Below are positions 17,407-64,000 of a stretch of DNA of 64,000 nt, in pieces. Each line of letters opens with the position of its first letter. Positions within the stretch are counted from its first letter, which is position 1. The stretch lies in sequence record ON862890.1. One strand, 5' to 3'. Position numbers and translations under genes: made by a program. The stretch is from Escherichia phage A221. Below the pieces are notes generated by a model, which searched no databases, was not told the origin of the DNA, and saw only the letters and a list, made by a program, of their open reading frames with translations.

Positions 17407-19597
17407 TGTAGAATACGCCCCGCTCAAGACGGGGTTTAAGACAGAAGACGTCAGACTGCGTATGGACCAAACGTTCATGCGCAAGCCGTCTGTGCGTGCA
17501 CCTCGTGTGGAGTTGATGCTAACCGACGAACAAGAATCGGAGTTCGTCGAGTGTGCGATGGACGCCCATTACTTCGCCGCCAACTACTACAAGATCACGA
17601 CCATCGATAAAGGCTTCATCCTCTTTGACATGCACGATTACCAGAAGCAGTTGTTCCATGACTTCCAGGACTATCGATTCAATGCGGTCGTCCAGGCTCG
17701 TCAGTCTGGGAAATGTGTAAAAGGTGACACGCTTGTCACAGTTTACGATACTCTCAGCCAAGAGCAGTTGCTCCTGACCATAGGGGAGCTTCACAGCCGC
17801 TTCGAGGACGTCAACCACGCTTTGCCGCTGAATACCATTGGCAACCATGACAAGTTCGTGGACAGCCGCTTCGGCAAGCGTTACTTTGTGCAATCCGATA
17901 GTGGCTGGGTTCCGGTTATCGCAGCGCATAAGACGAAGAAATATGCGGAATTCGTTATTGTGACTGTTACTGGGCGGCGAATTAACGTGGCCGACGAACA
18001 TATATTCTTCACTCCGGAAATGAAGGAGATATTTGCCAAAGACCTGAATGCTGGGTCATACATCATGACGTCAGAAGGTCCAGAAGAAATCCGTGAGGTT
18101 TGGCAGACTGGTGAGACGCATCACATGTATGACCTACAGGTGAAATCTAGTGATCAGCGCTACTACACCAACGGCTTCCTCAGCCACAACACGACAGTCG
18201 TGGCAGCGTTCCTGCTCTGGTATGCGATGTTCCACTCCGACAAAGAGATCGCAGTACTGGCGAACAAAGAGAAGCAGGCGATTGAAATCCTAGATCGTAT
18301 TCGCAAAGCATATCAAGATTTGCCATTCTTCCTCCAACAGGGTTGTGAGAAGTTCGGTTCCACGCTGATCGAGTTCGAAAACGGATCAAAGATCTACGCC
18401 TATGCGACATCTTCCGACTCCATCCGTGGTCGATCTGTATCTCTCCTGTATGTGGACGAAGTGGCGTTCATTGAAAACGACTTTGAATTCTGGGAGTCTA
18501 CATTCCCGGCGATTGCATCTGCAGAGACTTCACGTTGTATTCTGACCAGTACGCCGAAAGGTCAGCGCGGGTTGTTCTACGACATCGTCACCAAGGCGAA
18601 CCCAGAACATCCACAATACAACGACTTCAAGCTCACAGAGGTCCCATGGTATCGTGTTCCAACGTACACCAAAGATCCAGACTGGGAATCCAAACAAAGG
18701 GCGAAGCTGGGTGATGCACGTTTCGATCAAGAATTCGGTATTAAGTTCCGTGGTTCTGTGGGATCACTGATACCTGCCAAGTGTCTGGACAAGATGACCT
18801 CGAAGCTGTATCAGGAGCCGAACGAGTTCACCAAGATTTATCACGACTACGATCCTAAACGCATCTATATGGGTATCGCAGATACAGGCAAGGGTGTCGA
18901 AGGGGATTATTCTGTGCTGACCATTATCGACATCACAGACTATCCTCACAAGATCGCAGCCAAGTATCGAAATAACACGATACCTCCAATGATGTATGCG
19001 TACACAATCGCCGATATGGGTGAGAAGTATGGAACGTGCCCGATGCTAGTCGAGACTAACAACGACGTGGGTGGTCAGGTAATCACAATTCTATACCAGG
19101 AAATTGAATATCCCGAGATCATATTCACTACAACAGATACCAAGGGTACAGGCAAGAGAATCGGTGGTCGCCGCCCTGAGCCTGGTATCAATACCAACAA
19201 GAAGGTGCGCACAAACGGCTGCGCCAACCTGAAAGCCCTGATTGAACGTGAAATGCTGGTGATAGATGACCAGGACACGATAGATGAACTCAGTACATTC
19301 GTATGGACTGGGACAAGGTATGAAGCCGATGATGGTTGTCATGATGACTGTGTAATGCCCCTCGTGTTGTATGCATGGGCGGTGAAACAAGAATGGTTTA
19401 GTGATCTCACCAATTCAAATATCTCTGCGGACATGAGAGGACGGTTGTCTGCGATGGAAGAATCACAGATGCTACCATTTGGGGGTATGATGACGACGCC
19501 AGATCCTCACTCTGTGGAGAACATCCCAGGGTTCGGTGGAATTCAGGTTTATGATGAACGCTCTGGTATGTCTATGGAAGAATGGCTGAGACGGTGA
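17387..19597 (+). CDS. gp17: terminase large subunit (T4 gp17-like), intein-containing
   Basis: DYQKQLFHDF...ARQSGK[intein]TTVVAAFLLW...IEFENGSKIYAYATSSDSIRGRSVSLLYVDEVAF matches T4 gp17 ATPase around an interrupted Walker A; track start 17378 is GTG, ATG at 17387. Confidence 0.9.
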   Translation: MAYQKRDVEYAPLKTGFKTEDVRLRMDQTFMRKPSVRAPRVELMLTDEQESEFVECAMDAHYFAANYYKITTIDKGFILFDMHDYQKQLFHDFQDYRFNAVVQARQSGKCVKGDTLVTVYDTLSQEQLLLTIGELHSRFEDVNHALPLNTIGNHDKFVDSRFGKRYFVQSDSGWVPVIAAHKTKKYAEFVIVTVTGRRINVADEHIFFTPEMKEIFAKDLNAGSYIMTSEGPEEIREVWQTGETHHMYDLQVKSSDQRYYTNGFLSHNTTVVAAFLLWYAMFHSDKEIAVLANKEKQAIEILDRIRKAYQDLPFFLQQGCEKFGSTLIEFENGSKIYAYATSSDSIRGRSVSLLYVDEVAFIENDFEFWESTFPAIASAETSRCILTSTPKGQRGLFYDIVTKANPEHPQYNDFKLTEVPWYRVPTYTKDPDWESKQRAKLGDARFDQEFGIKFRGSVGSLIPAKCLDKMTSKLYQEPNEFTKIYHDYDPKRIYMGIADTGKGVEGDYSVLTIIDITDYPHKIAAKYRNNTIPPMMYAYTIADMGEKYGTCPMLVETNNDVGGQVITILYQEIEYPEIIFTTTDTKGTGKRIGGRRPEPGINTNKKVRTNGCANLKALIEREMLVIDDQDTIDELSTFVWTGTRYEADDGCHDDCVMPLVLYAWAVKQEWFSDLTNSNISADMRGRLSAMEESQMLPFGGMMTTPDPHSVENIPGFGGIQVYDERSGMSMEEWLRR
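17714..18190 (+). other. mini-intein (159 aa) inserted in the terminase Walker A P-loop
   Basis: Insert begins CVKGDTLVTV, ends ...TNGFLSHN, followed by Thr; flanking sequence reconstitutes QSGK-TT P-loop; no endonuclease domain evident. Confidence 0.75.
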
Positions 19598-19649: not shown

Positions 19650-21545
19650 ATGGCAACTCAAAGCTTCAGCGTTGCGCCGTCCGTACAGTGGACTGAGCGT
19701 GATGCCACGCTTCAGACGTCTCCATCCGTTGTTGTTCAGGGTGCGACTGTCGGCAAATTCCAATGGGGTGAAGCAGAACTCCCTGTGTTGGTCACTGGTG
19801 GCGAAACTGGTCTGGTGAAGAAATTCTTCAAGCCAAACGATGCAACTGCCACCGACTTCTTAGTGATTGCTGACTTCCTGTCTTACAGCTCTGTTGCATG
19901 GGTGACCCGTGTGGTCGGTCCGGCGGCACGCAACGCTGTAACCAAAGGTCAGACTGCAATCCTTATCCGCAACAAATTAGACTTCGAAACTGCGTCCCCA
20001 TCTGCGTCTATTACCTGGACAGGCCGCTATGCTGGCTCTCTGGGTAACGACATTGCTGTGAACATCTGTGATGCTGCGCTGTTCCCGACCTGGGAATTCC
20101 GTAACAACTTCGCATATGCTCCACAGGATGGCGAGTACCATATCGCCATCGTTGACAAAGTAGGTCGCATCACCGACTCTTCTGGCGCTGTTAGTCAGGT
20201 TGACCGTATCTCTGTATCCGGTACTGCCACCGCTGCTGGTTCCATCTCTGTTGCTGGTGAAGCCGTGGCGTACACTGACGCTGACACTCCGGCGACTCTG
20301 GCGACAAAGATCGGAACCGCGCTGACGTCTCTGTCTGAAGTGTATTCTTCTGTTGTCGTGAAGTCCAACACCGTCACCGTCACTCACAAAGCAATCGGTC
20401 CTCAGGCTGCGACTGCGATTGTTCCAGACGCGAATGGTATGACTGCTACCGCTGCCGTCACCACTGTTGGTGCTTCCGGTACGATCATCGAGAAGTATGA
20501 ACTGGTGCAGACCGCTCAGGGTTCTAAGAAATCTGATGGATCCAATGCGTACTTCAAAGACGTGATCAACGGCACCTCAAATTGGGTGTACACCTTCGCC
20601 ACTACCCTGGCTGCTGGTGTCATTGAACTCGAAGGTGGTGTAGACGATTACACTGGGAACCGTGTTGCGGCTATCCAGGCACTGAACAACGCCGAAGCGT
20701 ATGATGCCAAGCCAGTGTTCGGTTTCTGTGAAGAACTGATTGAGCAGCAGGCACTGATCGACCTGTCCACTGAGCGTAAAGACACAGTGTCCTTCGTGTC
20801 TCCTCTTCGCGATACGGTCGTCGGAAACCGTGGCCGTGAGATGGATGATGTTGTGGCCTGGCGTGAAAGCCTTGTTCGCGACTCCTCCTACTTCTTCATG
20901 GATGACAACTGGGCGTATGTGTACGACAAGTACAACGACAAAATGCGTTGGATTCCGGCTTGTGGCGGCACCGCAGGTGTTTGGGCGCGAAGCATTGAAA
21001 TCGCGGGTATCTACAAGTCTCCAGCGTTCCACAACCGTGGTAAATACAACAACTATAATCGAATGGCGTGGTCTGCGTCTTCTGATGAGCGTGCTGTGTT
21101 GTATCGCAACCAGATCAACAGCATCGTCACCTTCTCCAACGAAGGCATCGTGTTGTACGGCGACAAGACTGGCCTGACCCGCCCATCTGCGTTCGACCGC
21201 ATCAACGTTCGTGGTCTGTTCATTATGGCAGAGCAGAACATCGCAGCCATCGCCAAATACTACCTTGGTGAAAACAACGATGCATTCACTCGTGGGTTGT
21301 TCAGCAACGCTGTCCGCCCATATATCCGCCAGTTGGCCAACATGGGCGCGATCTATGACGGGATGGTGAAGTGTGACGAGGACAACAACACCGCTGATGT
21401 TATCGCTGCGAACCAGATGGTCGCGGGTATCTGGCTGAAACCAGAATACTCCATCAACTGGGTGTATCTGGACTTTGCTGCGGTACGTCCGGACATGGAG
21501 TTCAGCGAGATCGAAACTGGCGGTGGCATCGTAGCCGCTTCCTGA
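19650..21545 (+). CDS. gp18: tail sheath protein (T4 gp18-like)
   Basis: N-terminal VQGATVGKFQWGEAELPVLV matches the gp18 GKFQWG signature; ATG 19650 (track start 19617 is TTG); CTAAATA at 19601. Confidence 0.8.
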   Translation: MATQSFSVAPSVQWTERDATLQTSPSVVVQGATVGKFQWGEAELPVLVTGGETGLVKKFFKPNDATATDFLVIADFLSYSSVAWVTRVVGPAARNAVTKGQTAILIRNKLDFETASPSASITWTGRYAGSLGNDIAVNICDAALFPTWEFRNNFAYAPQDGEYHIAIVDKVGRITDSSGAVSQVDRISVSGTATAAGSISVAGEAVAYTDADTPATLATKIGTALTSLSEVYSSVVVKSNTVTVTHKAIGPQAATAIVPDANGMTATAAVTTVGASGTIIEKYELVQTAQGSKKSDGSNAYFKDVINGTSNWVYTFATTLAAGVIELEGGVDDYTGNRVAAIQALNNAEAYDAKPVFGFCEELIEQQALIDLSTERKDTVSFVSPLRDTVVGNRGREMDDVVAWRESLVRDSSYFFMDDNWAYVYDKYNDKMRWIPACGGTAGVWARSIEIAGIYKSPAFHNRGKYNNYNRMAWSASSDERAVLYRNQINSIVTFSNEGIVLYGDKTGLTRPSAFDRINVRGLFIMAEQNIAAIAKYYLGENNDAFTRGLFSNAVRPYIRQLANMGAIYDGMVKCDEDNNTADVIAANQMVAGIWLKPEYSINWVYLDFAAVRPDMEFSEIETGGGIVAAS

Positions 21546-22070: not shown

Positions 22071-23847
22071 CCAGTTCATACCGGATAAGACCACACCCCC
22101 AGATACGCCCCAACCCGGCTTCTATCGCCAGCATATCCTCTGTTTTACCTTCTACATCGTATCCAAGTTTAAGGAATTTCTCTTTCCTGAAATTGAATTT
22201 GTGTATACGTGAGCCATAGCCCGGAGTCACATATTTGTAATCAGGGGGAAGGATTTCCTTTTCAACAAATCCGTTATTCAGGTAAACATTTTTCAGACGA
22301 CTGACAACACAACGATCACCAAAAGAATATACTGTCTCACCCCGATGTCGAGCGATATAATATTTCAGCAAGCGTGAGAATGCGCCATGACAATTGTTAG
22401 AAGCAAATCTCACCAATTCAATACCATGCGTCCGTTTGGTAAACAACATCACCGCCTGGATATTCCCAGTTTTGTCTACAAGGTGTATATAATCTGTCGC
22501 CACCACACCACCTTGTATATGGAATCGGTCGAGAAAGTCCTTGGACGTCCTATAGGAGCCTTCTAAAATGATATGTTGGCGAGCGTATGACAATGGTTTC
22601 CCTATCCCCAATTTTGCTTTAAGGAGTGATTTAACCACTTCCCGTTTGTCACGCCACTCATCTTCCCAGATATGGATTAATTGAATACCCTGGGCTTCAC
22701 AGTACATGGTCTTTTCAAGATGGTAGTCTTTGTATCGATGTTTCTCTGTATGCCAGTACAAGCCGTTAAATTCTATTGCCAACTTATGTTCTGGGCAGTA
22801 TATGTCTATCTGGCGTGTGGTCACCCTTCCGTCGAACATTTTACCTCTGAGGACGGAGAAATTACCAGATTCGCATATAACACCCAATGAATCCAGGTAT
22901 GAACATATTTCTATTTCTGGCTGCGTTTGGCTTTGGCTGCTGGGGTACGTGAAAGAGTTCCTATATTCTTCAGAAGAGAAATAGTGAGGTACGCCGTATT
23001 TTTCTTTTGAAATGATCCTGGTATTGACCTGGCTTCTATCCCATATAGCCTTTACCTTCAACGGATAATCAACCCCATATTTTAAGACGCATGTTTTCTT
23101 TCTCTTTTCTATAATGGAATTGAGGAACATTGGATGATCCACACCATAGATCTTCCTCCAAGTCTCAATCACCCTTTCCCTCACTTCTGGCATTTTCATG
23201 ACGTGTGATACGCCATAGCGTTCCATGACGGAAGCAGCCACTCTGTCCTTTATAACATCAGACTTCATAGGGTGGTCGACCCCATATTTCTTAAGGACAG
23301 TTTCCCGCGACTTTTGTTTTACTTCTTCCAGTTGGAATGTGTTGGCTACGCCATATTTCTCTGATATGGCGTTTTCTAGGTTGACCCGTTCTGAGCCTCC
23401 CGCCTTCATTGATTTTCGTTGGCATTCTTCGGAACAAAACTTTTTGTATCTGGGTGGTTGGGCTTCCATTTCTAAGCCAACGTCAGCACCGCAAGTGACA
23501 CACTGCGACTTCGGAATATCGTACAGCCAAGCAGTTATCGCTTGTGGTTCTTCTAATAGGTCGTTGTGTGACACCACGTATCCAACAACATCAACCCCAG
23601 TATGGGCCGTGAGTAGGGGATGAGAGATAAGTTTGTAGTTCAACGAACCATCTTTCTTCCTGAGTTTACTATCAACCCAAGAGCGGCATTCGGTTTCGGT
23701 CGTCGGGATGTTATCCAACAAACCCGGATTGCGTTTCATCGTTCCCAGCATGAATGATTTACATTCGTCACTACAATACAACGCAGCCTTCCTGGTTGGG
23801 GTGAACGGTTTGTGGCAGCATGAACAATTTTTATCGGGGAATGGCAT
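22063..23847 (-). CDS. putative homing endonuclease, Hef-like (zinc ribbons + KYGV repeats + PD-(D/E)XK-like nuclease domain)
   Basis: Minus strand; ATG at 23847 with GAGGA RBS (track codon 1 is GTG); CxxC pairs; six imperfect repeats with core KYGVxHPM; EFNGLYWHTE...IHIWEDEW restriction-endonuclease-like motif; paralog of 29838-31826. Confidence 0.65.
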   Translation of the reverse strand: MPFPDKNCSCCHKPFTPTRKAALYCSDECKSFMLGTMKRNPGLLDNIPTTETECRSWVDSKLRKKDGSLNYKLISHPLLTAHTGVDVVGYVVSHNDLLEEPQAITAWLYDIPKSQCVTCGADVGLEMEAQPPRYKKFCSEECQRKSMKAGGSERVNLENAISEKYGVANTFQLEEVKQKSRETVLKKYGVDHPMKSDVIKDRVAASVMERYGVSHVMKMPEVRERVIETWRKIYGVDHPMFLNSIIEKRKKTCVLKYGVDYPLKVKAIWDRSQVNTRIISKEKYGVPHYFSSEEYRNSFTYPSSQSQTQPEIEICSYLDSLGVICESGNFSVLRGKMFDGRVTTRQIDIYCPEHKLAIEFNGLYWHTEKHRYKDYHLEKTMYCEAQGIQLIHIWEDEWRDKREVVKSLLKAKLGIGKPLSYARQHIILEGSYRTSKDFLDRFHIQGGVVATDYIHLVDKTGNIQAVMLFTKRTHGIELVRFASNNCHGAFSRLLKYYIARHRGETVYSFGDRCVVSRLKNVYLNNGFVEKEILPPDYKYVTPGYGSRIHKFNFRKEKFLKLGYDVEGKTEDMLAIEAGLGRIWGCGLIRYELEN

Positions 23848-36230: not shown

Positions 36231-36683
36231 ATGAAAGAACAACTACAGACAATGGCTACCGAGGACATCATGAACGAACTGGAGCCGCTGATCACAGTGG
36301 ACCCAGAAGACATGAACCTTGACCAGATCTCACTGAAAATCGGGCGCTCTTGGATGGCTGTGCAGCGGCATTATCTGCGCGAGGGGCGTTATCTTGAATT
36401 TCTCAACGGGCGCTTCCGCCAGATCGATCTCTATCTGCGCCGCTACTATGCAGGGGAGTTACCCCCTAACATCTACGCAGAGCGCCCCCTGAAGGTTCGC
36501 CCCCTGAAGTCTGACCTAGATACATGGGTCAAAGCGGACGATGACTATGTGGAGTTGTCTGTTCTGTTACAAGAACAAAAAGCAAAAGTCAAGTTCATAG
36601 AGACTTGTTTGGATCGCCTAAACAAACTGGGATACGAAGTGAAAAATGCTATTGAGTGGAGAAAATATATTGATGGTGTATAA
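36231..36683 (+). CDS. putative recombination mediator (UvsY-like)
   Basis: 150 aa; YYAG and C-terminal LGYEVKNAIEWR segments resemble T4 UvsY as remembered; lies next to UvsW-like helicase as in T4. Confidence 0.4.
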   Translation: MKEQLQTMATEDIMNELEPLITVDPEDMNLDQISLKIGRSWMAVQRHYLREGRYLEFLNGRFRQIDLYLRRYYAGELPPNIYAERPLKVRPLKSDLDTWVKADDDYVELSVLLQEQKAKVKFIETCLDRLNKLGYEVKNAIEWRKYIDGV

Positions 36684-36698
36684 CGAGGATCACACATA

Positions 36699-37445
36699 AT
36701 GGCATCTCTCCAGGATCTACGCAAGCTGAATGACTTCGAAAACCGTCATTACACATTTCAGCAATACGAACTTCCTCATAAGGAACTGGAGTGTGTTACG
36801 ACGGAGAATGGTCGTCATTACGTTTCACCGTCTGGTGTAAAACTGACATCCGTCACGACTATGCTGGGGCGCACTGGAGATCATGAATGGCTTGAGTCTT
36901 GGAGGAAGAAGCTGGGCGCAGAGGCCGCTGACCTTGAGACCATGCGCTGTGCTGACCGAGGGGAGAAGCTGCACCTTGCGTGTGAACTGTATCTAAAGAA
37001 CCGCCCAATGAAAGAAGTGTTGGAAGCGGCTGGCGAATACATGTTCATGTTCAAGCAGCTGTTCCCTTACCTGAACAAGATGACAAAGATCTATGCTCAG
37101 GAGATCCCATTATATAGTGAGGTGCTTGGTCTTGCAGGTCGTGTAGACCTTATCGGGGTTTATGAGGGTAAACCTGCTGTCATCGACTTCAAGACATCGA
37201 ACACCATGAAGACGCGGGGCATGATCGAGGATTACAGTATCCAGCTGTGCTTATATTCGGTCATGTTCCAGCAGATGTTCGGCGTCAAGATCACCCGCCT
37301 CATCAACGTGATTGCCAACGAGTCTTCCCCTCTACCAACCGTCATTGAGTTCAACCGTGATGACATTCTGACAAAGATGTTTGAGCGTGTTCGTCTGTAT
37401 CATCGCATGGATAAAGAACAAAACGGAGTCTGGCCGGATCACTAA
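36699..37445 (+). CDS. PD-(D/E)XK-family nuclease (putative exonuclease)
   Basis: 248 aa; GRVDLIGVYEGKPAVIDFKTS contains a D...D-x-K signature typical of the restriction-endonuclease-like fold. Confidence 0.5.
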   Translation: MASLQDLRKLNDFENRHYTFQQYELPHKELECVTTENGRHYVSPSGVKLTSVTTMLGRTGDHEWLESWRKKLGAEAADLETMRCADRGEKLHLACELYLKNRPMKEVLEAAGEYMFMFKQLFPYLNKMTKIYAQEIPLYSEVLGLAGRVDLIGVYEGKPAVIDFKTSNTMKTRGMIEDYSIQLCLYSVMFQQMFGVKITRLINVIANESSPLPTVIEFNRDDILTKMFERVRLYHRMDKEQNGVWPDH

Positions 37446-37448
37446 ATA
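37442..37448 (+). promoter_or_regulatory. late-promoter-like motif CTAAATAcccc
   Basis: Overlaps TAA stop of upstream gene; 26 nt upstream of UvsW-like ATG 37474. Confidence 0.5.
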
Positions 37449-37473
37449 CCCCATAATCCTTGGGAGATTTTGT

Positions 37474-38982
37474 ATGGCAGACATTCAGATTGTTAAGGTT
37501 AACGAAGTCCGCATGCGTTGCATCGCAGATCTTTCTATCAGGGAAGAACTTAATGACTACTTCAAATTCGAAGACCCGAACTTCGTTCCCAACCCCTTCT
37601 CTAAATGGGACGGGGTTGTCCGCCTATTTACCAAGTCATCTGGTCTAATCGATATCGGTCTGCTGTTTGAGGTATTTAAGTTCTGTAAGAACAACGGATA
37701 CACCATTGAACTGGATCCGGCACTGAAGTACATTCAGGACATCCCAGATGAAGAAATCCGTGAATTCATCGACAGTCTGCATCCAAAGATCCGTACCGAA
37801 AATCACGAATATATCGATGCCGAGACTCGTGACTACCAGTATGACACCATCGCCAAGGCTATGCGTCAAACCAGATGCGTCTGTGAACTGGCTACGAGTG
37901 CCGGTAAGTCCTTTATTCTGTATGTCATGGCGCGGTACTACAGGCGGCGCAGAGAAGCTCTCGAAAGTCCTCTGAAGACGCTTATCGTGGTGCCGTCAAT
38001 CCACTTAGTCACTCAGCTGTACGACAACTTCGAAGAGTATGCGCATGGCAGTGATTGGAAGCCCGTTGTTAACACCCAGCTGATTTTTGAGGGCGCGACA
38101 AAGGAGATCAGCAAACCAATCGTCATCAGTACATGGCAAGGCATTCAAGATCAGCCGAAGGAATGGTTCCACCAGTTCGGTGATATCGTGGTGGATGAAG
38201 TGCACACCTCCAAGTCTGAGAAACTGTCTTACATCCTAAACAACTGCATCTATGCCGACCAGCGCCTGGGGGTTACAGGTACGCTGGCGAATACCAAAGT
38301 TGCCGGGCTTCAGGTGGTGGCTCACTTCGGGGCGTACCATAAGATCATCACGGCTCGCGATCTCATCAATCTCGGGTACGCCACTGACATCAAAGTGAAG
38401 ATGATTCAGCTGAAGCACACTCCGGCGGATGCTGTTGGTCTGGACGGGGATTATTCCAAGGAAATAGAATACCTCATTACACACCAGTCCCGCAACGAAC
38501 TGATCGCCAAGATGGCACTGAATCTGAAAGGAAACGTGGCCATCATGTTCGAGCGTATTGATGGTCACATGATGGTCGTGTATGATATGCTGAGCGCAGT
38601 CAAGCCCAACGTGTTTGTCATCAACGGGGAAGTGAAGATCGAAGACCGCCGCCGCATACAGAAAGCGATGGAGGATGGAGAGGACATCACCCTGTTGGCA
38701 TCATACGGGACAATGCAGCAGGGAGTGTCGATCAAGAAGCTACACCACCTTGTACTGGCACACCCGAGCAAGTCATATATCCGCGTCATACAGACATTGG
38801 GTCGTCTGATGCGTCAGCACTCCTCTAAGGACGTCGCGTGGATATGGGACTTAGTGGATGATGCATCGTACAACGCCAGCACGAACCACGCTCTTAGGCA
38901 CTCTCACGAGCGTTACAAGTTTTACCTGGCAGAGCGCCACCCTGTGGAATTCATGAAGGTGGCGCTGGGTAATCACGATTAA
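37474..38982 (+). CDS. uvsW: DNA helicase (T4 UvsW-like, SF2)
   Basis: ATG at M32 of track ORF (codon 1 TTG); ELATSAGKS Walker A, VVDEVH motif II; overall resemblance to UvsW; CTAAATA at 37442 overlapping upstream stop codon. Confidence 0.75.
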   Translation: MADIQIVKVNEVRMRCIADLSIREELNDYFKFEDPNFVPNPFSKWDGVVRLFTKSSGLIDIGLLFEVFKFCKNNGYTIELDPALKYIQDIPDEEIREFIDSLHPKIRTENHEYIDAETRDYQYDTIAKAMRQTRCVCELATSAGKSFILYVMARYYRRRREALESPLKTLIVVPSIHLVTQLYDNFEEYAHGSDWKPVVNTQLIFEGATKEISKPIVISTWQGIQDQPKEWFHQFGDIVVDEVHTSKSEKLSYILNNCIYADQRLGVTGTLANTKVAGLQVVAHFGAYHKIITARDLINLGYATDIKVKMIQLKHTPADAVGLDGDYSKEIEYLITHQSRNELIAKMALNLKGNVAIMFERIDGHMMVVYDMLSAVKPNVFVINGEVKIEDRRRIQKAMEDGEDITLLASYGTMQQGVSIKKLHHLVLAHPSKSYIRVIQTLGRLMRQHSSKDVAWIWDLVDDASYNASTNHALRHSHERYKFYLAERHPVEFMKVALGNHD

Positions 38983-39350
38983 TCTTGATTCACATAGGCG
39001 GGGGTGGCCTCGCCTTCATCAGTTACTACACCGAACAATTTGTCCAGAGAAGCCAGACATTGTGAGTTCAGGTGTTCACTGATCGTATCCTTCAGCATTT
39101 GTTCGCTACCCAATTTGAATGGCAGAACCTTCGCTTCGATGCCGTTTTCAAACGTCACAACGCCAACATACAGACCAACTTTCAGGCCTGTCATCAAGCC
39201 AAGGGGGACAAATCGCGGCTCCGATGGTAAGTGCTTGTCTGACGCCAGCTGTGTCAGATAAACTGGGGTGCCTGTGATAAATTGACCTGTGGTGAGGTTG
39301 GCGTCTGGCTTACTACACCCGACTGCGTATAATCCTACGAACTGTTTCAT
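38979..39350 (-). CDS. hypothetical protein
   Basis: 123-aa minus-strand ORF with ATG and gagag RBS, diverging from the AT-rich iteron region. Confidence 0.4.
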   Translation of the reverse strand: MKQFVGLYAVGCSKPDANLTTGQFITGTPVYLTQLASDKHLPSEPRFVPLGLMTGLKVGLYVGVVTFENGIEAKVLPFKLGSEQMLKDTISEHLNSQCLASLDKLFGVVTDEGEATPAYVNQD

Positions 39351-39533
39351 ATATTACTCTCGTGTGTTGGTTAACATGACATACATATTATTTCGCGTGC
39401 ATGTTTAGACCAAATAAATTATTTTTGCTGTTGAATAAAAACTGCTTTCTTGTTGAACAATGGCGTGGTATTATACGAGTTGTGAGCGTTAGCGAACAAC
39501 GAGTATTTGTTTTATGAGCGAAGCGAATAGGAT

Positions 39534-39598
39534 TAATAAAGATTATTATCTTTAATAAAGGTTATTATCTTTAATAAAGGTTATTATCTTTAATAAAG
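39534..39598. repeat. tandem direct repeat, about 3.4 copies of a 19-bp unit
   Basis: taataaag(a/g)ttattatctt repeated head-to-tail in the 380-bp AT-rich divergent intergenic region. Confidence 0.85.
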
Positions 39599-39601
39599 TC
39601 C

Positions 39602-39622
39602 ATAAATGCCGAAGGCATTTAT
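39602..39622. repeat. perfect 9-bp inverted repeat (palindrome)
   Basis: ATAAATGCC-gaa-GGCATTTAT immediately after the tandem array. Confidence 0.8.
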
Positions 39623-39731
39623 TAATAACGCGTAGCGCAATTTGCCACTTGTTCTATAAGCAAAACACAGCGATACTAGATTGCGTCAAACATGACTTGA
39701 ACCCCCCACTATATTTTGAGGATACATACAA

Positions 39732-40400
39732 ATGCAAGAGATCACTCTCTCCGAACGTACACTTCAGTTGCTGGCCAACTTTGAGACCATCAACCCATCT
39801 ATCGTTCTGACACCGGGCAAGATGCTGCGCAGTATTAATGATTCTTCTACTGTGATCGCCGTGGCGCAGATCGAAGAAGACTTCCCGTTTGAGTTCCCGA
39901 TTCTGGACCTGACCAAACTTCTGGCCATCCAGCGCCTACCTTCCTTCAAAGGTGCCAAAGCCGAATTCCATCAGGACTACATCCTGTTGAAAGGCGAAAG
40001 TTCTCAGCTGCAATTCTGGCGTTCTGCTAAAGAACTCACTGTTGTTCCGGCTGACACCATTGAACTACCGTCTGTCGACTTTGAAGCGATCATCACTCCA
40101 GAGAAGATGAAAGAACTGACCCGCGCCTGTTCTACCCTCGGACACAAGACTGTGCGCCTGGTTGCTCAGGGTGGCAAAACTCGCCTGGTTGCAACCACCA
40201 CTACCCTGGACAACTCCAACAACTACACTGTTGAGCTGGGTGAAACCGCGCTGCCGGACTTCGTAATGCCGCTGGATGTTGCCAACCTGAAAATGATCGA
40301 AGGCAACTACACTCTGCGTGCATGTGCTGATCTACAGATGGTGAACTTCCAATCATCCGACGCGACGATCAATTACTTCGTCGGCGCACAGATTGAGTAA
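39732..40400 (+). CDS. gp45: sliding clamp (T4 gp45-like)
   Basis: 222 aa; N-terminal LQLLANFETINPSIVL resembles gp45 LLKNFATINSGIML; followed by gp44/gp62/regA-like genes in T4 order. Confidence 0.8.
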   Translation: MQEITLSERTLQLLANFETINPSIVLTPGKMLRSINDSSTVIAVAQIEEDFPFEFPILDLTKLLAIQRLPSFKGAKAEFHQDYILLKGESSQLQFWRSAKELTVVPADTIELPSVDFEAIITPEKMKELTRACSTLGHKTVRLVAQGGKTRLVATTTTLDNSNNYTVELGETALPDFVMPLDVANLKMIEGNYTLRACADLQMVNFQSSDATINYFVGAQIE

Positions 40401-41927: not shown

Positions 41928-42392
41928 ATGGCGCGTAATACGCTAGACATATTGAATATTTCAGCAGTCAACGATGAGGCCAGCATCGTTGATTGTATGG
42001 TTGAAGTTCAATTGAACCAAGATCGGCCAGGTATATTCCTGGGGATCAAGGAAACACTGAGTCGAATTGGGGTAAACACGCGCCAAGAGCCGAATACTCT
42101 GTATCAGACTTGCCATATTCTTCATAAGTGTGGCAAGTATTATATCGTCCACTTTAAGCATCTATTTATGCTGGACGGGCATTACAACGGATTTAACCGC
42201 GAAGATGTCCTGAGGATGAACCGAATCATCAAACTGCTGGAGCAGTGGAACATGGTGAAGGTCATTCATCCTGAACAGGTCACCGAAGCAGCCGATATGT
42301 CTCGCATTAAAGTGGTTAAACACGATCAGGTTCCTGAATGGAAACTGGTTCCAAAATACATCATCCGGCCTACGAAGGCAAAAAGCGAATAA
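41928..42392 (+). CDS. regA: translational repressor RegA
   Basis: IKETLSRIGVN...LYQTCHILHKCGKYYIVHFKHLFMLDG and PEWKLVPKYIIR match T4 RegA signature segments. Confidence 0.8.
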   Translation: MARNTLDILNISAVNDEASIVDCMVEVQLNQDRPGIFLGIKETLSRIGVNTRQEPNTLYQTCHILHKCGKYYIVHFKHLFMLDGHYNGFNREDVLRMNRIIKLLEQWNMVKVIHPEQVTEAADMSRIKVVKHDQVPEWKLVPKYIIRPTKAKSE

Positions 42393-52072: not shown

Positions 52073-52264
52073 TTTGGATAAAGAATTGGTTTGGGAAATT
52101 GTGAAGGGTGTCCTAGTAATAATCGCGGTGGTTTTCATCTTGGGTGGGAACTTCTTCTATTGGTTATTCCGATCCGACCAGAAACGTCGCGAACGCAAGG
52201 AGAAAGAGAGAAAGGATCGATGGATGCGCTAACTAAGGGATAACCCTATATCCCGAGGTGTGTC

Positions 52265-52714
52265 ATGTTCCTTACATCTTTTATTGACTGGTTGAACATC
52301 ATTAACGGCCTGAGGATTCCTGTTGGGAACCTCGGGCTTTCTCGTTCTTCTATGCCGCAAATCGATGCCGACAAACAAGAAGATTTTCACAAATATCTTG
52401 AAGACAACGGCGTGTCCATAGATGCTGTGCAAGTGCCCATCAAAATGCTTCGTCTCACCCAGAACGAAATCAACAAGATGAAGGTCTGGAAGATCATGAA
52501 GAACATCAGAAATAAGAAACCTATGGGTCGAGTTTGGGTGTCTTCTGACAATTACGTTGTTGACGGTTCTCACCGATTTGTCGCTGCGTTGAACATGGAC
52601 GGCAAACAGCGCATGAAGGTCTACAAAGTTGATTTGCCAGCGATGGAATTTGTTAAACTCGCTAAACAGTTTCAGGGTGTGCGATACAGAACGGTCTCAG
52701 ATTCGAGATACTAA
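52265..52714 (+). CDS. ParB-like nuclease domain protein
   Basis: 149 aa; VVDGSHRFVAA matches the ParB/Srx DGxHR motif. Confidence 0.5.
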   Translation: MFLTSFIDWLNIINGLRIPVGNLGLSRSSMPQIDADKQEDFHKYLEDNGVSIDAVQVPIKMLRLTQNEINKMKVWKIMKNIRNKKPMGRVWVSSDNYVVDGSHRFVAALNMDGKQRMKVYKVDLPAMEFVKLAKQFQGVRYRTVSDSRY

Positions 52715-52715
52715 T

Positions 52716-53549
52716 ATGGACGTCTATTCAGAACTTATCGAAATAGGAGCGAAACGTCATTTCGTAAACAAATATCTTTCGCTCATTTCTTCTTTTAGTC
52801 ATTACCAAGGCGTCGGGGAGAAGCATCACATATTACCTGTGGCATTGTTCCCCGAATATGCCACGGAATACGAAAACATCGTCAAACTGCCTCATAGGGT
52901 TCATTATATTGCCCATGTGTGTCTTGCTCTTGCGTTACCAGGTTCATGTATGGTAAATGCGATTATGATTTTGAAGCGGTTAGATAGTAGAGTCAACTCA
53001 CACCTGTTTGCGAAAATGCGCAAGAGATTCGCCGAAAGGCTTTCTGTGGTGAATGCAGGGGAAAATAATCCCATGTATGGCAAGAAGAGATCCCAGAAGG
53101 CAAAGAAAAAGACCTCGGAGTCTCTTAGAAATTTTTATAAATCTAAAAGAAAAGAAGATCCAGATTTAAAAGAATTTTTCTCGGAAAGGAATTCTAAAAT
53201 AAAACGGGGAAAAGATCACCATTCTTATGGGAATAAATTGACCAATAATCTTACTCCAGAACAAGAACGATGTAGAATAGAATCGGTCACCAAGACTTCC
53301 CGTGAAACCATGCCCTGGGAGAAGCCAAGATGGAAACCAGAAAGGGACAAATGGTGGTGTTGGGCTGCACATATACACTATCACATATTGAAAGGTAAGA
53401 CGAGAGGGGAAGCCCTGAAACAAGTATTCGGTTCCAATGACGCAGAAATTTGGGCACAGGTTCGGCCAATTATTCTACGGTTGGATAACGGTTGGGACCC
53501 TTTAACTTGCGAAAAATGGGTTAATCGTTATGGGGTGGAATACCAGTAA
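52716..53549 (+). CDS. HNH homing endonuclease with NUMOD3-like motifs
   Basis: ATG at M30 of track ORF; HHILPVALFPEYATEYENIVKLPHRVHYIAH HNH core; two NPMYGKK / HHSYGNK NUMOD3-like repeats; starts 1 nt after ParB-like gene stop. Confidence 0.75.
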   Translation: MDVYSELIEIGAKRHFVNKYLSLISSFSHYQGVGEKHHILPVALFPEYATEYENIVKLPHRVHYIAHVCLALALPGSCMVNAIMILKRLDSRVNSHLFAKMRKRFAERLSVVNAGENNPMYGKKRSQKAKKKTSESLRNFYKSKRKEDPDLKEFFSERNSKIKRGKDHHSYGNKLTNNLTPEQERCRIESVTKTSRETMPWEKPRWKPERDKWWCWAAHIHYHILKGKTRGEALKQVFGSNDAEIWAQVRPIILRLDNGWDPLTCEKWVNRYGVEYQ

Positions 53550-53643
53550 ACCACCCGTTTCTGAATACGATAGTTTATTGAATCCCTTTACTCATCATGG
53601 TGAGCCGCCTATCATTTCATCCAATGAAATAAGGAGAATCACC

Positions 53644-62217: not shown

Positions 62218-64000
62218 ATGACTCAGAGCACAGATATCTTGACCAAATTTGGTAATCTTTTGAAGGAAGCCGACGCCCCGGTCGAGGTTGAAGTCCCATT
62301 TGAAGTGCGTAACGTTGTTACACACAAACTGACCTTCCGTAAAGGCCGCGCCAAGAACTTCCGCTCCATCGGCAATCAGTTCATGGAGATTGATTATCAG
62401 CGCAACCCGGCCACCCTTGTCACGTCTGATGACAACGGCGCGGGTAAATCCACGATGCTGGTATGGCTGCTGTTTTTCGTACTGTACAACGACACATACA
62501 GCAAGAAGGAGAAGAAGGCAGGCCTGGTTAACTCACAGAGCCGCAAGGAATGTGTGGGTGAGGTAGAGTTTGCCTGCCGTGGTAGCGAATGGAAGGTTCG
62601 CCGTGGCATTAAACCTGACTTTGTTGAAGTCTACCAGATGGTGGACGGCAAGTGGTTGCAGATCGATAACGAAGCAGCCAAAGCCGACATGAACAAGTAC
62701 ATCGTGAATCTCATCGGTGTAGACCAGAAGATGTTTGAGAACTCTCTGGTGCTGGGTAAAGAGAAGTTCATTCCGTTCACGGAGATGTACACAGCCGACC
62801 GCCGCGCGATGGTGGAGACTATCTGGGACTTGGGCTTCTTCAGCCTGATGAACGAAGATGTCAAGGCCGCCATCAAAAGGACAAATGCAACTCTGGACTC
62901 TATATCTAACGAATGCGCACTGAAGGTTGTTGACCACACCAACAAGAAGACGCAGCTTCAGCAGATCGAGCAATCCAACGCCCTGATCCAACAGCAGTCG
63001 GCCGATATCCTTGTACAGCAACAGGAAGCCCTGAATTCCTTGGATGCCGACATCGCCGCCCAGAATGAAGAGCGCACCCGCCTCACGGCTGTGGAGTTTG
63101 AAGCCACCCAGGAAATGAAGACGGTGGAAAGCCGCCTGCATGATGAATCCATGGTAGAGATCGAGGCTGTCAAGAAAGACTTTGATACCAAGATCCAGGC
63201 GGTGAAGGACGCCGCGCAGGACAAGGCTGACGATTATGAGCGCATCGAAGTGTCTACTGCGGAGCATGATCTTCAGGTCTTGCGTGACCGCGCCTTTACA
63301 GTGGCCGAACGCAAGAACACCCTGCTCACCGAGCGCAACACAAACCTGGACGCCCTGAACGCTGCTATCCAGCGCCGTCAACAGGGTGAGAACTTCCGTA
63401 TCAAGTTCCAGACCGAAATGGATGGCCACCAGTCGGCTATCAAGCGCTTCCACGACATGGGGACTTGCCCAACATGTACCCAACTGGTGTCCGACGATAC
63501 CAAGGCGCGTATTGAAAGCGAGTACAATCCTCAGATCCAGGAACTACAGTCGAAGTTAGATCAACTGGACAAAGTTACCGCCGATATCAATGTCCTGATC
63601 GATGATCACAAGGCTCAGGACGATAAGTTGGTTGCTGACATTGCTGTGTTGGACGCTGAACTGGACGCCATGCGCAAGCAGGCCGACGAAATCGTTGACA
63701 ATATCAAGCAGCTACGCCGTGATATTCAAGGGTTCCATGATGCTGCCACGATTGAGTGTAATTCGCTGAACCGTGAATGCCAACAGAAGATCCTTGACAT
63801 CCGTAAGGCACTGAACGTTCGTTTTGAAGACATCACTGCTTCACTGCAACAGACGCGAGAGAATGCCGTCAGCGGGATTAAAGCCGTCGATGATAAGATC
63901 GCCGAGCTGAAAGCCCGTCGTGCTCCTCTCGTGGCGTCTATTGCCGATCTGGAGCGTAAACTGGCTGTACAGCCAACACCTACCACCGACCTAGAGAACT
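62218..64000 (+). CDS. gp46: recombination ATPase subunit (T4 gp46-like, SbcC/Rad50), 3' partial
   Basis: Not in track (no stop inside window); hand translation from ATG 62218 gives MTQSTDILTKFGNLLKE... with Walker A SDDNGAGKSTML in the first 80 codons; start overlaps gp47 stop (TAACATG). Confidence 0.6.
   Translation, partial: MTQSTDILTKFGNLLKEADAPVEVEVPFEVRNVVTHKLTFRKGRAKNFRSIGNQFMEIDYQRNPATLVTSDDNGAGKSTMLVWLLFFVLYNDTYSKKEKKAGLVNSQSRKECVGEVEFACRGSEWKVRRGIKPDFVEVYQMVDGKWLQIDNEAAKADMNKYIVNLIGVDQKMFENSLVLGKEKFIPFTEMYTADRRAMVETIWDLGFFSLMNEDVKAAIKRTNATLDSISNECALKVVDHTNKKTQLQQIEQSNALIQQQSADILVQQQEALNSLDADIAAQNEERTRLTAVEFEATQEMKTVESRLHDESMVEIEAVKKDFDTKIQAVKDAAQDKADDYERIEVSTAEHDLQVLRDRAFTVAERKNTLLTERNTNLDALNAAIQRRQQGENFRIKFQTEMDGHQSAIKRFHDMGTCPTCTQLVSDDTKARIESEYNPQIQELQSKLDQLDKVTADINVLIDDHKAQDDKLVADIAVLDAELDAMRKQADEIVDNIKQLRRDIQGFHDAATIECNSLNRECQQKILDIRKALNVRFEDITASLQQTRENAVSGIKAVDDKIAELKARRAPLVASIADLERKLAVQPTPTTDLEN

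Follow-up and report, generated by a model that had tools for sequence, protein, structure and literature searches.

The spacer between a minus-strand open reading frame (ORF) of 123 amino acids (aa) and the gp45 sliding-clamp gene of Escherichia phage A221 is, with a probability that we would put at about 0.6, a conserved, compound transcription-control region of an Agtrevirus-like phage of the Ackermannviridae, and not an iteron origin. It occupies positions 39351-39731 (381 bp) of the 64,000-nucleotide stretch of this genome analysed here (record ON862890.1; hereafter the window), with the ORF on its left and the clamp gene on its right, and its GC content is 0.28-0.38 as against 0.487 over the whole window. 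The initial annotation had offered the region as a candidate origin or regulatory hub. All of the sequence features that it listed are present, far beyond chance, and lie within 1 nt of where they had been placed. Its regulatory reading held up, in that blocks invariant across the family coincide with predicted divergent sigma70-type promoters, with the predicted clamp promoter and 5' untranslated region (5'UTR) and with a strand-specific hairpin element, while the iteron origin did not.

In the arrangement that we propose, a leftward sigma70-type promoter would drive the 123-aa ORF, and an A/T-rich upstream region would be common to it and to its divergent counterpart. The latter, a rightward -10 element named Px here, would start a short structured RNA (about 145-150 nt in this phage, about 110 nt in relatives with 1.5 copies of the repeat) or a leader. 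The non-coding plus-strand element would consist of two hairpins of one design, in each of which a Watson-Crick stem gives way to a tandem G.A/A.G mismatch, then to a two-pair GC helix and lastly to a free loop; an AT-rich hairpin would follow, with a 19-bp core flanked by TTAATAAAG that replication slippage would have expanded from 1.5 to 3.5 copies. Next, a conserved palindromic hairpin would probably serve to end the Px transcript or to insulate it, and the clamp gene would be read from its own promoter with a conserved 5'UTR. The GAGC-loop-GCGA hairpins may serve as recognition sites for a phage or host factor, as we infer because the same module stands in the leader of the gp5 gene. In kind, such a region belongs to known classes (promoter or leader region, candidate cis-regulatory or small RNA, variable-number tandem repeat (VNTR)), and its most interesting content is the two-copy GA-hairpin module together with clean promoter candidates, not the repeat array. 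The features of the spacer are as follows:

39385-39413, minus strand: predicted sigma70-type promoter of the 123-aa ORF (-35 TTGGTC at 39413-39408, 17 nt, -10 TAATAT at 39390-39385)
39436-39459, plus strand: blocks TAAAAA (39436-39441) and TGTTGAACA (39451-39459), invariant in 12 of 12 sequences, the latter unique in the window
39466-39474, plus strand: Px, a candidate rightward extended -10 element (TGgTATTAT), with the putative start of a structured transcript at about 39479-39482
39473-39506, plus strand: hairpin 1, AUAC-GA-GUUGU-GA-GC-GUUA-GC-GA-ACAAC-GA-GUAU (RNAalifold), with three short helices and two tandem G.A/A.G internal loops
39511-39531, plus strand: hairpin 2 module, UUUAU-GA-GC-GAA-GC-GA-AUAGG, which holds the second motif
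39530-39601, plus strand: hairpin 3, AT-rich, GGAUU...AGUCC, enclosing the repeat tract (folds of phage AV101 and of the window)
39533-39598, both strands: 19-bp tandem repeat TTAATAAAG(A/G)TTATTATCT, 3.5 copies (Tandem Repeats Finder (TRF), alignments and per-locus copy counts)
39602-39622, both strands: perfect palindrome ATAAATGCC-gaa-GGCATTTAT with 9-bp arms, unique in the window
39649-39677, plus strand: predicted clamp promoter (-35 TTGTTC at 39649-39654, 17 nt, -10 GATACT at 39672-39677)
39681-39731, plus strand: nearly invariant clamp 5'UTR, with the Shine-Dalgarno sequence GAGGA at 39718-39722

Conservation of the spacer

Spacer identities, computed without the repeat expansion described below, were compared with those of gp45 and of the 123-aa ORF:

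AV101: spacer 100%, gp45 98.8%, 123-aa ORF 94.9%
Ag3: spacer 98.2%, gp45 95.8%, 123-aa ORF 92.5%
LIMEstone1: spacer 95.9%, gp45 92.8%, 123-aa ORF 89.0%
Locus L020: spacer 97.1%, gp45 90.0%, 123-aa ORF 79.8%

The spacer was more conserved than both flanking genes in every comparison within the Aglimvirinae. Against LIMEstone1, for which about 50 kb were compared, its 300-bp windows fell at the 95th-98th percentile and gave the second-best non-overlapping window (the most conserved, at 99.3%, starts at 23001). Across three genera, twelve blocks of the spacer were invariant in 12 sequences. One ORF alone spans the conserved core, at 39401-39517 (38 aa); a small protein gene was considered there and rejected, as Ag3 and SKML-39 have a 1-nt indel in it and its ATG is lost in Kuttervirus; the Mooltan_082 annotation is probably spurious.

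Three observations on more distant or altered genomes stand apart from these comparisons. In Salmonella phage Se-I (L007; MN871497.1, Kuttervirus SeJ, a record flagged UNVERIFIED_ORG), the spacer is Aglimvirinae-like on its left side, as far as about hairpin 1, and Kuttervirus-like on its right, which implies a recombination junction within the spacer. Vibrio phages GR28A (L060:940-1110) and 1.244.A (L059:900-1190) have neither the minus-strand ORF nor the hairpin element; their UvsW-clamp spacers are extremely AT-rich all the same, that of GR28A being full of TTATTTTA-type repeats, and the two have the sequence AAAGCAGAGC(A)GCGGTT in common just 5' of the clamp gene. In CRISPR-reduced genomes of Salmonella phage selz (OL964737 and OL964753, 143.6 and 122.7 kb; PMC9825161) the spacer upstream of the clamp gene was kept, as was, in OL964737, the one upstream of gp5. 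This retention is consistent with both spacers being indispensable, though not proof of it.

Predicted promoters and the clamp 5'UTR

The predicted clamp and ORF promoters both show the pattern of sigma70 promoters, with hexamers 17 +/- 1 bp apart and a spacer sequence that drifts. In the clamp candidate the hexamers are identical and their spacer exactly 17 nt long in 25 of 25 distinct sequences (three genera), while the spacer sequence differs between genera; at this position phiEa2809 has, as read by eye, TTGCTT-N17-TAATAT. The ORF candidate retains its hexamers and 17-nt spacing, in the form TTGGTC-N17-TA(A/T)TAT, in Aglimvirinae, Kuttervirus and Taipeivirus, and TGTTTAGACCAA at 39402-39413 is invariant (12 of 12 sequences). 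The blocks at 39436-39459 may form an UP-like or activator-binding region common to the two divergent promoters. Px retains the hexamer TA(T/A/C)TAT (TATATT in phiEa2809) in four genera, with its variation at the least constrained position. Downstream of the clamp promoter candidate, the 5'UTR contains invariant blocks at 39681-39690, 39692-39700, 39707-39714 and 39716-39724.

In layout this resembles divergent sigma70-type regions that carry UP-like A-tracts, as well as extended -10 promoters: its two pairs of hexamers stand back to back, each with a 17-nt spacer, there is an extended -10 of the TGn type, an A-tract is invariant at about -45 to -40, and hexamers and spacing are conserved where the spacer sequence is not. 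It differs in that Px has no recognisable -35 and in that the rules of early and middle promoters in this family are unknown (PMC3184105). ViI-like phages are without MotA, AsiA, Alt and ModA, and the promoters at their points of transcriptional divergence had not been identified (PMC3184105). A MotA-type middle promoter was rejected for the spacer, as the family is without MotA and the 'middle promoter' labels of LIMEstone1, like all of its promoter annotations in the spacer, are consensus matches only. We also rejected GCTTTCTTG as a promoter motif, since its other four copies lie in coding sequence.

Predicted hairpins with tandem G.A mismatches

The duplicated gagcg/agcgaa motifs that had been noted from the letters alone lie at 39484-39496 (GAGCGTTAGCGAA, within hairpin 1) and at 39516-39527 (GAGCGAAGCGAA, within hairpin 2), and are the sole matches to GAGCG-N1-2-AGCGA in the window. 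For 14 sequences RNAalifold gave the consensus 5'-AUAC-GA-GUUGU-GA-GC-loop-GC-GA-rCAAC-GA-GUAU-3', followed by yA-y-GA-GC-loop-GC-GA-r-Uw. Each of the 14 sequences, drawn from four genera, can form every one of the 11 core pairs of hairpin 1 (100% pairing), and pairing is preserved through three independent compensatory changes: in hairpin 1, C-G to U-A in Ag3, LIMEstone1 and L020, and A-U to U-A, together with one whole-base-pair insertion, in phiEa2809; in hairpin 2, U-A to C-G at the closing pair. Wobbles (U-A to U.G and G-C to G.U) are tolerated on the plus strand only. In every genus all three internal loops place GA opposite GA on the same strand, and hence UC opposite UC on the minus strand, which argues for single-strand folding over a two-fold symmetric duplex site. 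The plus strand folds with a mean energy of -15.2 kcal/mol, the minus strand with one of -8.3. From these alignments and folds, the element is probably structured and plus-strand-specific. It scored 93.5 bits with a covariance model, the next-best match in the window reaching 12 bits, and is thus present there as a single copy.

Among known RNA elements we found no counterpart. The best Rfam 15 hit of the spacer element had an E-value of 6-10, far below the gathering threshold, and that of the copy in the gp5 leader was likewise weak and far below it. The internal loops are symmetric (2x2) and without a bulge, so that they do not form a kink-turn. Compared with phage leader and small RNAs (lambda nut boxB, HK022 put, RegA/RegB targets), the window shares conserved hairpins that follow an early-type promoter and precede a hairpin and an essential gene, and also two copies per genome that evolve in concert. 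It differs from them in having no sequence or Rfam similarity, and in hairpins made of tandem G.A mismatches, a 2-bp GC helix and a free loop, a combination unmatched among the families that could be tested. Scans of metagenomes and genomes with AACGAG-N8-25-GAGCGNAGCGAG gave chance matches among the matches listed. Two loci at about 23 bits, L171, 5' of a beta-helix protein gene, and L235, where REP-like repeats adjoin a sortase gene, were set aside as pattern-preselected, in unrelated contexts and not evidence.

The motifs of the window contain exactly the sequences GCGTTAGC and GCGAAGC, and so resemble the DNA mini-hairpins GCGNAGC / GCGNNAGC described by Hirao. Such sequences are present at the primase-dependent complementary-strand origins of phages St-1, alpha3 and G4 (PMC13037366). 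As the conserved feature of the element, however, the mini-hairpin was rejected: its loop type is not conserved across genera or in the gp5-leader copy (where GCTTTGC, GCAAAGC, GCTTCAGC, GCAACGC and GCATAGC replace it in one or the other), and the heptamer is not enriched, with 28 GCGNAGC sites in the window vs about 31 expected. The likeness is probably a coincidence.

A second copy of the module upstream of gp5

Outside the window, a covariance-model scan of AV101, the closest complete genome, over an unselected 100 kb beyond the part that corresponds to the spacer found a second copy of the module at 63338-63391 of AV101 (23.2 bits, E about 1e-3). It lies within the 363-nt gap 5' of the gene for the gp5 baseplate hub (AV101, OQ973471.1, 63129-63491 = L304:13129-13491; homologues L306-L309) and has the 20-mer ATGAGCGAAGCGAATAGGAT in common with positions 39514-39533 of the window. 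The gap is conserved family-wide (269 records), and the module copy in three genera. Its layout comprises, in order, a terminator, a promoter of the form TGcTATAAT, a conserved leader of about 200 nt, a GC hairpin, the GAGC-loop-GCGA module, an A-rich tract, a further hairpin with a compensatory change in Taipeivirus, and gp5, the promoter and terminator being predictions like those of the spacer.

With the two copies taken together, 12 of 12 sequences have GAGC..GCGA unchanged around a free loop (GAA, AAA, GTA, TTCA, AAC, ATA and also TTT); since the loop varies in this way, what is conserved is not likeness to a mini-hairpin. In Aglimvirinae the two copies share a T-A closing pair and outside that subfamily a C-G one, and only in Taipeivirus do both have T at position +3. 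Such concerted change of two unlinked copies suggests, from the alignments, either a common trans-acting partner or gene conversion. A further step can be put forward only tentatively, and we would bet against it: that the GAGC-loop-GCGA hairpin is a previously undescribed recognition element of the whole Ackermannviridae in the clamp and gp5 leaders, read by one factor, phage-encoded or hijacked from the host, that couples clamp and structural gene expression. In T4-type phages the sliding clamp also activates late transcription.

The 19-bp repeat tract

What had been reported as 3.4 tandem copies at 39534-39598 is, by TRF, 3.5 copies of 19 bp at 39533-39598 (97% matches, score 125), the strongest tandem repeat of the 64 kb. 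The unit occurs nowhere else in the window and was matched in 0 of 100 shuffles. As iterons, however, these repeats fail in relatives of the same and sister genus, which hold 1.5-2.5 copies, and in other genera, which are without the unit. AV101, Ag3, SKML-39 and LIMEstone1 align as TTAATAAAG-r-TTATTATCT-TTAATAAAG, that is, one full unit and a flanking 9-mer, and relative to this 1.5-copy state the window carries exactly 38 extra bases (e.g. 39552-39589). One full unit is present in these four and in P46FS4 and L020; two are present in LHE287, PC3 and the Integrated Microbial Genomes/Virus (IMG/VR) contig L013, whose clamp protein is 100% identical; and three are found in the window only, among all fetched loci. 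In the remaining close relatives, match lengths fit 1.5 or 2.5 copies, and among IMG/VR contigs none had at least three full units. Kuttervirus, Taipeivirus, Nezavisimistyvirus and phiEa2809 are without the unit. At its position Kuttervirus has a different AT-rich inverted repeat, TAATAAA-gaaaggt-TTTATTA, the Klebsiella phages of Taipeivirus have a deletion and the AT-rich sequence of phiEa2809 is unrelated.

Besides forming an inverted repeat of its own (AAAGrT-TATT-ATCTTT), the unit is bounded by the 9-bp direct repeat TTAATAAAG, and in plus-strand folds of AV101 and of the window the added units merely lengthen hairpin 3. On this comparison the tract is a slippage-prone minisatellite within an AT-rich hairpin, a strain-specific expansion of the unit: a minisatellite and not a conserved initiator-binding array because relatives hold 1.5-2.5 copies and other genera none, and slippage-prone because a hairpin-forming inverted repeat is flanked by a 9-mer direct repeat. 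True iterons, among them the 12-nt oriE repeats of T4, are kept in syntenic regions of relatives (PMC3016281). The window shares with oriE and with plasmid iteron origins evenly spaced short direct repeats in non-coding DNA, here too of a T4-like phage, but its repeats are not kept in relatives as those of oriE are, and no RepEA/RepEB-like or Rep-like gene is nearby. To VNTR loci of bacteria and phages, with their direct-repeat-bounded unit (here TTAATAAAG), whole-unit copy differences between near-identical genomes and (near-)perfect copies, we see no difference of substance. The tract does lie inside a hairpin of a conserved regulatory spacer, and its copy number could tune that hairpin.

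The palindrome at 39602-39622

The perfect palindrome, ATAAATGCC-gaa-GGCATTTAT, was found as it had been described. Kuttervirus retains both 9-bp arms around a loop changed from GAA to GTCA (3 to 4 nt), and the hairpin that Taipeivirus has here is a different one, AATAGAT-ta-ATCTATT. What is conserved is thus the potential to form a hairpin and not the sequence or the half-site spacing, which makes an operator less likely than a structural role, be it as transcript end, insulator or processing site. With a stem of 9 bp that includes three G-C pairs, it has the stable stem-loop of a Rho-independent terminator, and its probable role is to end the Px transcript or to insulate it from the predicted clamp promoter. 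A T4-like late-promoter box (CATAAATA) was rejected as an explanation (three matches vs 1.7 expected), as was a UUCG tetraloop on the minus strand, where the 3-nt loop register bars C(UUCG)G without breaking the stem.

Weighing the explanations

Two alternatives keep the spacer a site of gene control. Px transcripts might enter the clamp operon only if RNA polymerase is allowed past the hairpin at 39602-39622 by the hairpin 1/2 element, with or without a bound factor, in the manner of put or nut sites or of an attenuator, which would give the clamp delayed-early timing. The order of promoter, structured RNA, hairpin and gene at both the gp45 and gp5 copies would suit this, as would the partner suggested by their concerted changes, and the authors of the CBA120 study proposed that antitermination may replace middle-mode control in MotA-less relatives (PMC3184105). 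Nevertheless the strongly conserved clamp promoter candidate lies 3' of the hairpin, so that the gene can do without read-through; on the plus strand the hairpin makes a weak intrinsic terminator; and we found neither an alternative terminator/antiterminator pairing nor similarity to antitermination or leader families of Rfam. We regard such a conditional-termination leader as unlikely, if worth keeping in mind. That the CGAG/GAGC/GCGA blocks and the palindrome instead form a double-stranded DNA operator array, bound by a phage transcription factor that co-regulates the divergent genes, strikes us as improbable. The primary sequence of the hairpin arms is indeed more conserved than most RNA stems need, the palindrome is perfect with 9-bp arms, the position between divergent promoters is apt and folding z-scores are weak. 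Against an operator stand the GA-opposite-GA arrangement of all three internal mismatches on the same strand in every genus, the insertion in phiEa2809 of a whole base pair that retains complementarity, the change of the palindrome loop from 3 to 4 nt and the unrelated hairpin of Taipeivirus, and the adjoining 123-aa ORF, which has no recognisable DNA-binding fold.

The other two alternatives make the spacer an origin. In an origin of the T4 oriF/oriG type, the Px transcript would form a persistent R-loop in the AT-rich tract and prime the leading strand, the displaced plus strand would fold into the GA hairpins, and the neighbouring UvsW would later remove the R-loop. The initial annotation had argued for an origin from synteny with T4 near uvsY and uvsW, an argument that is weak here, since T4 oriF is a MotA-dependent promoter with an unwinding element and this family is without MotA. 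At oriF and oriG a promoter suffices if it is joined to an AT-rich unwinding element, whose sequence is arbitrary (PMC3016281); such origins have no sequence signature, and we hold an R-loop origin here to be rather unlikely. The window does resemble them in a candidate -10 element followed, about 55 nt on (about 50 nt after the predicted start), by its most AT-rich 60-100 nt, amid T4-like replication and recombination genes (UvsY, UvsW, gp45, gp44/62). Moreover, a hairpin that includes the -10 region would form more easily in single-stranded DNA than in an RNA starting after the -10, and the motifs match the mini-hairpins of primase-dependent origins mentioned above. The AT tract is, however, unexceptional in its ancestral 1.5-copy form, where it ties with three or four other intergenic gaps, and a conserved, probably structured element stands between promoter and AT tract. 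The search for a skew-based origin signal found none in the window: cumulative GC skew has no turning point at the spacer, and the strand switch is a single minus-strand gene in a plus-strand block. Neither MotA nor AsiA occurs in the family (PMC3184105), and the window has no MotA box. The loops (TTT, AAA, TTCA, AAC, ATA) are not conserved, GCGNAGC is not enriched, and the same module in the leader of the gp5 baseplate-hub gene fits expression control better. An iteron origin, in which the 19-bp repeats would be bound by an initiator of the phage, as happens at plasmid origins and has been proposed for T4 oriE, is far less probable still. This genome alone has the 3.5 evenly spaced direct repeats (at least three of about 12-22 bp being usual) in AT-rich DNA beside replication genes; close relatives that replicate normally have one full unit and other genera none. 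The repeat is confined to a single locus in the window, its neighbours (UvsW, the clamp and the 123-aa ORF, which has no recognisable initiator fold) include no initiator-like gene, and each unit, a hairpin-forming inverted repeat with a 9-mer direct repeat, is a classic substrate of slippage.

Several points also weigh against the transcription-control region that we prefer. Compared with CBA120 of Kuttervirus, the whole spacer is of average conservation, because its central AT-rich part diverges while discrete blocks stay fixed. Shuffle z-scores of the core of hairpins 1 and 2 are weak (mean -1.2, near 0 in Kuttervirus and Taipeivirus), the shuffle controls for pairing can be beaten by relatedness alone, and with so little sequence variation the covariation is supportive and statistically not decisive; the very high conservation of the hairpin arms would fit a protein-binding site in double-stranded DNA too. 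The -10 of Px, for which there is no convincing -35, shares bases with the outer helix of hairpin 1, which makes the true 5' end uncertain: either the RNA begins further upstream than predicted or the outer helix forms in single-stranded DNA only. The terminator scan flags the palindrome on the minus strand only (five T in eight), while the plus-strand tail, UAAUAAC, falls below the scan threshold and offers no good U-tract. Every promoter, RNA end and terminator given here is an in-silico prediction, and in the searchable literature we found no transcriptome, origin or small-RNA studies of Ackermannviridae.

Genome and gene neighbourhood

A sequence search with 1.6 kb around the spacer matched 152 phage records. 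Escherichia phages AV101, RPN242, LHE287, YX22 and PC3 came top (96-98%), followed by Shigella phage Ag3 and Salmonella phage SKML-39 (95%), Dickeya phages of Limestonevirus (92%) and, more distantly, Kuttervirus. By this pattern of matches, the window is from an Agtrevirus-like phage of the Ackermannviridae, subfamily Aglimvirinae. The genes here run in the order UvsY, a PD-(D/E)XK exonuclease, UvsW, the 123-aa ORF on the minus strand, the spacer, gp45, gp44, gp62 and regA (the RegA homologue at about 41928-42392), which bears out the UvsY-like and UvsW-like neighbours first noted:

36231-36683: UvsY
37381-38982: UvsW, after the PD-(D/E)XK exonuclease gene
38979-39350, minus strand: 123-aa ORF (phrog_4255), divergent from the clamp gene, function not assigned
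39732-40400, plus strand: gp45 sliding-clamp gene, heading the gp45-gp44-gp62-regA block

The 123-aa ORF has homologues only among Ackermannviridae-like phages. It has no Pfam domain, and a search of the PDB with its AlphaFold2 model (mean predicted local distance difference test (pLDDT) 79) found no structural neighbour (best E-value 0.84); a role as regulator or initiator was rejected for want of either domain or structural neighbour. Its conserved C-terminus reads ...SLDKLFG...EGEATPAYVNQD; in the family, the N-terminus MKQFVGLYAVG is invariant and the C-terminus takes the form ...C-l-x-S-L-D-K-L-F-G...(D/E)EGEATPAYVNQDQS. The LDKLFG segment resembles SLDFLFG, the clamp-binding tail of T4 DNA polymerase, and the gp55 homologue of the phage does not share an SLDKLFG-type segment. 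In the RefSeq record of CBA120 the homologue is unannotated and left as a 710-nt gap.

Other observations concern the wider window. The program-made ORF of UvsW (533 aa, from a TTG at 37381) shares its first 65 nt (37381-37445) with the exonuclease gene; UvsW of AV101 is annotated as 1509 nt, so the true start in the window is probably about 90 nt further downstream. In LIMEstone1 the UvsW gene is interrupted by an HNH homing endonuclease (I-LimI), whereas that of the window is intact. Finally, the tracts at about 52100-53600, 17660-17960 and 20920-21220 are 95-100% identical to CBA120 of Kuttervirus vs 77% window-wide, suggesting recent inter-genus recombination or ultra-conserved genes.

Implications

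Copy number of the 19-bp tract (1.5, 2.5 or 3.5) is a potential marker for strain typing, and the tract cautions that a neat direct-repeat array beside replication genes can be a recent product of slippage instead of a set of iterons. Ackermannviridae (Vi01-, CBA120-, Ag3- and LIMEstone-like) are widely used in biocontrol and therapy, and neither the origins of these phages nor their early and middle promoters and late promoter motif have yet been defined (PMC3184105). The spacer yields testable candidates: two divergent promoters, a clamp promoter and a two-copy hairpin module that possibly marks a shared regulator. If the latter proved true, the GAGC-loop-GCGA element would be a first handle on the early and middle regulatory logic of T4-like phages without MotA.

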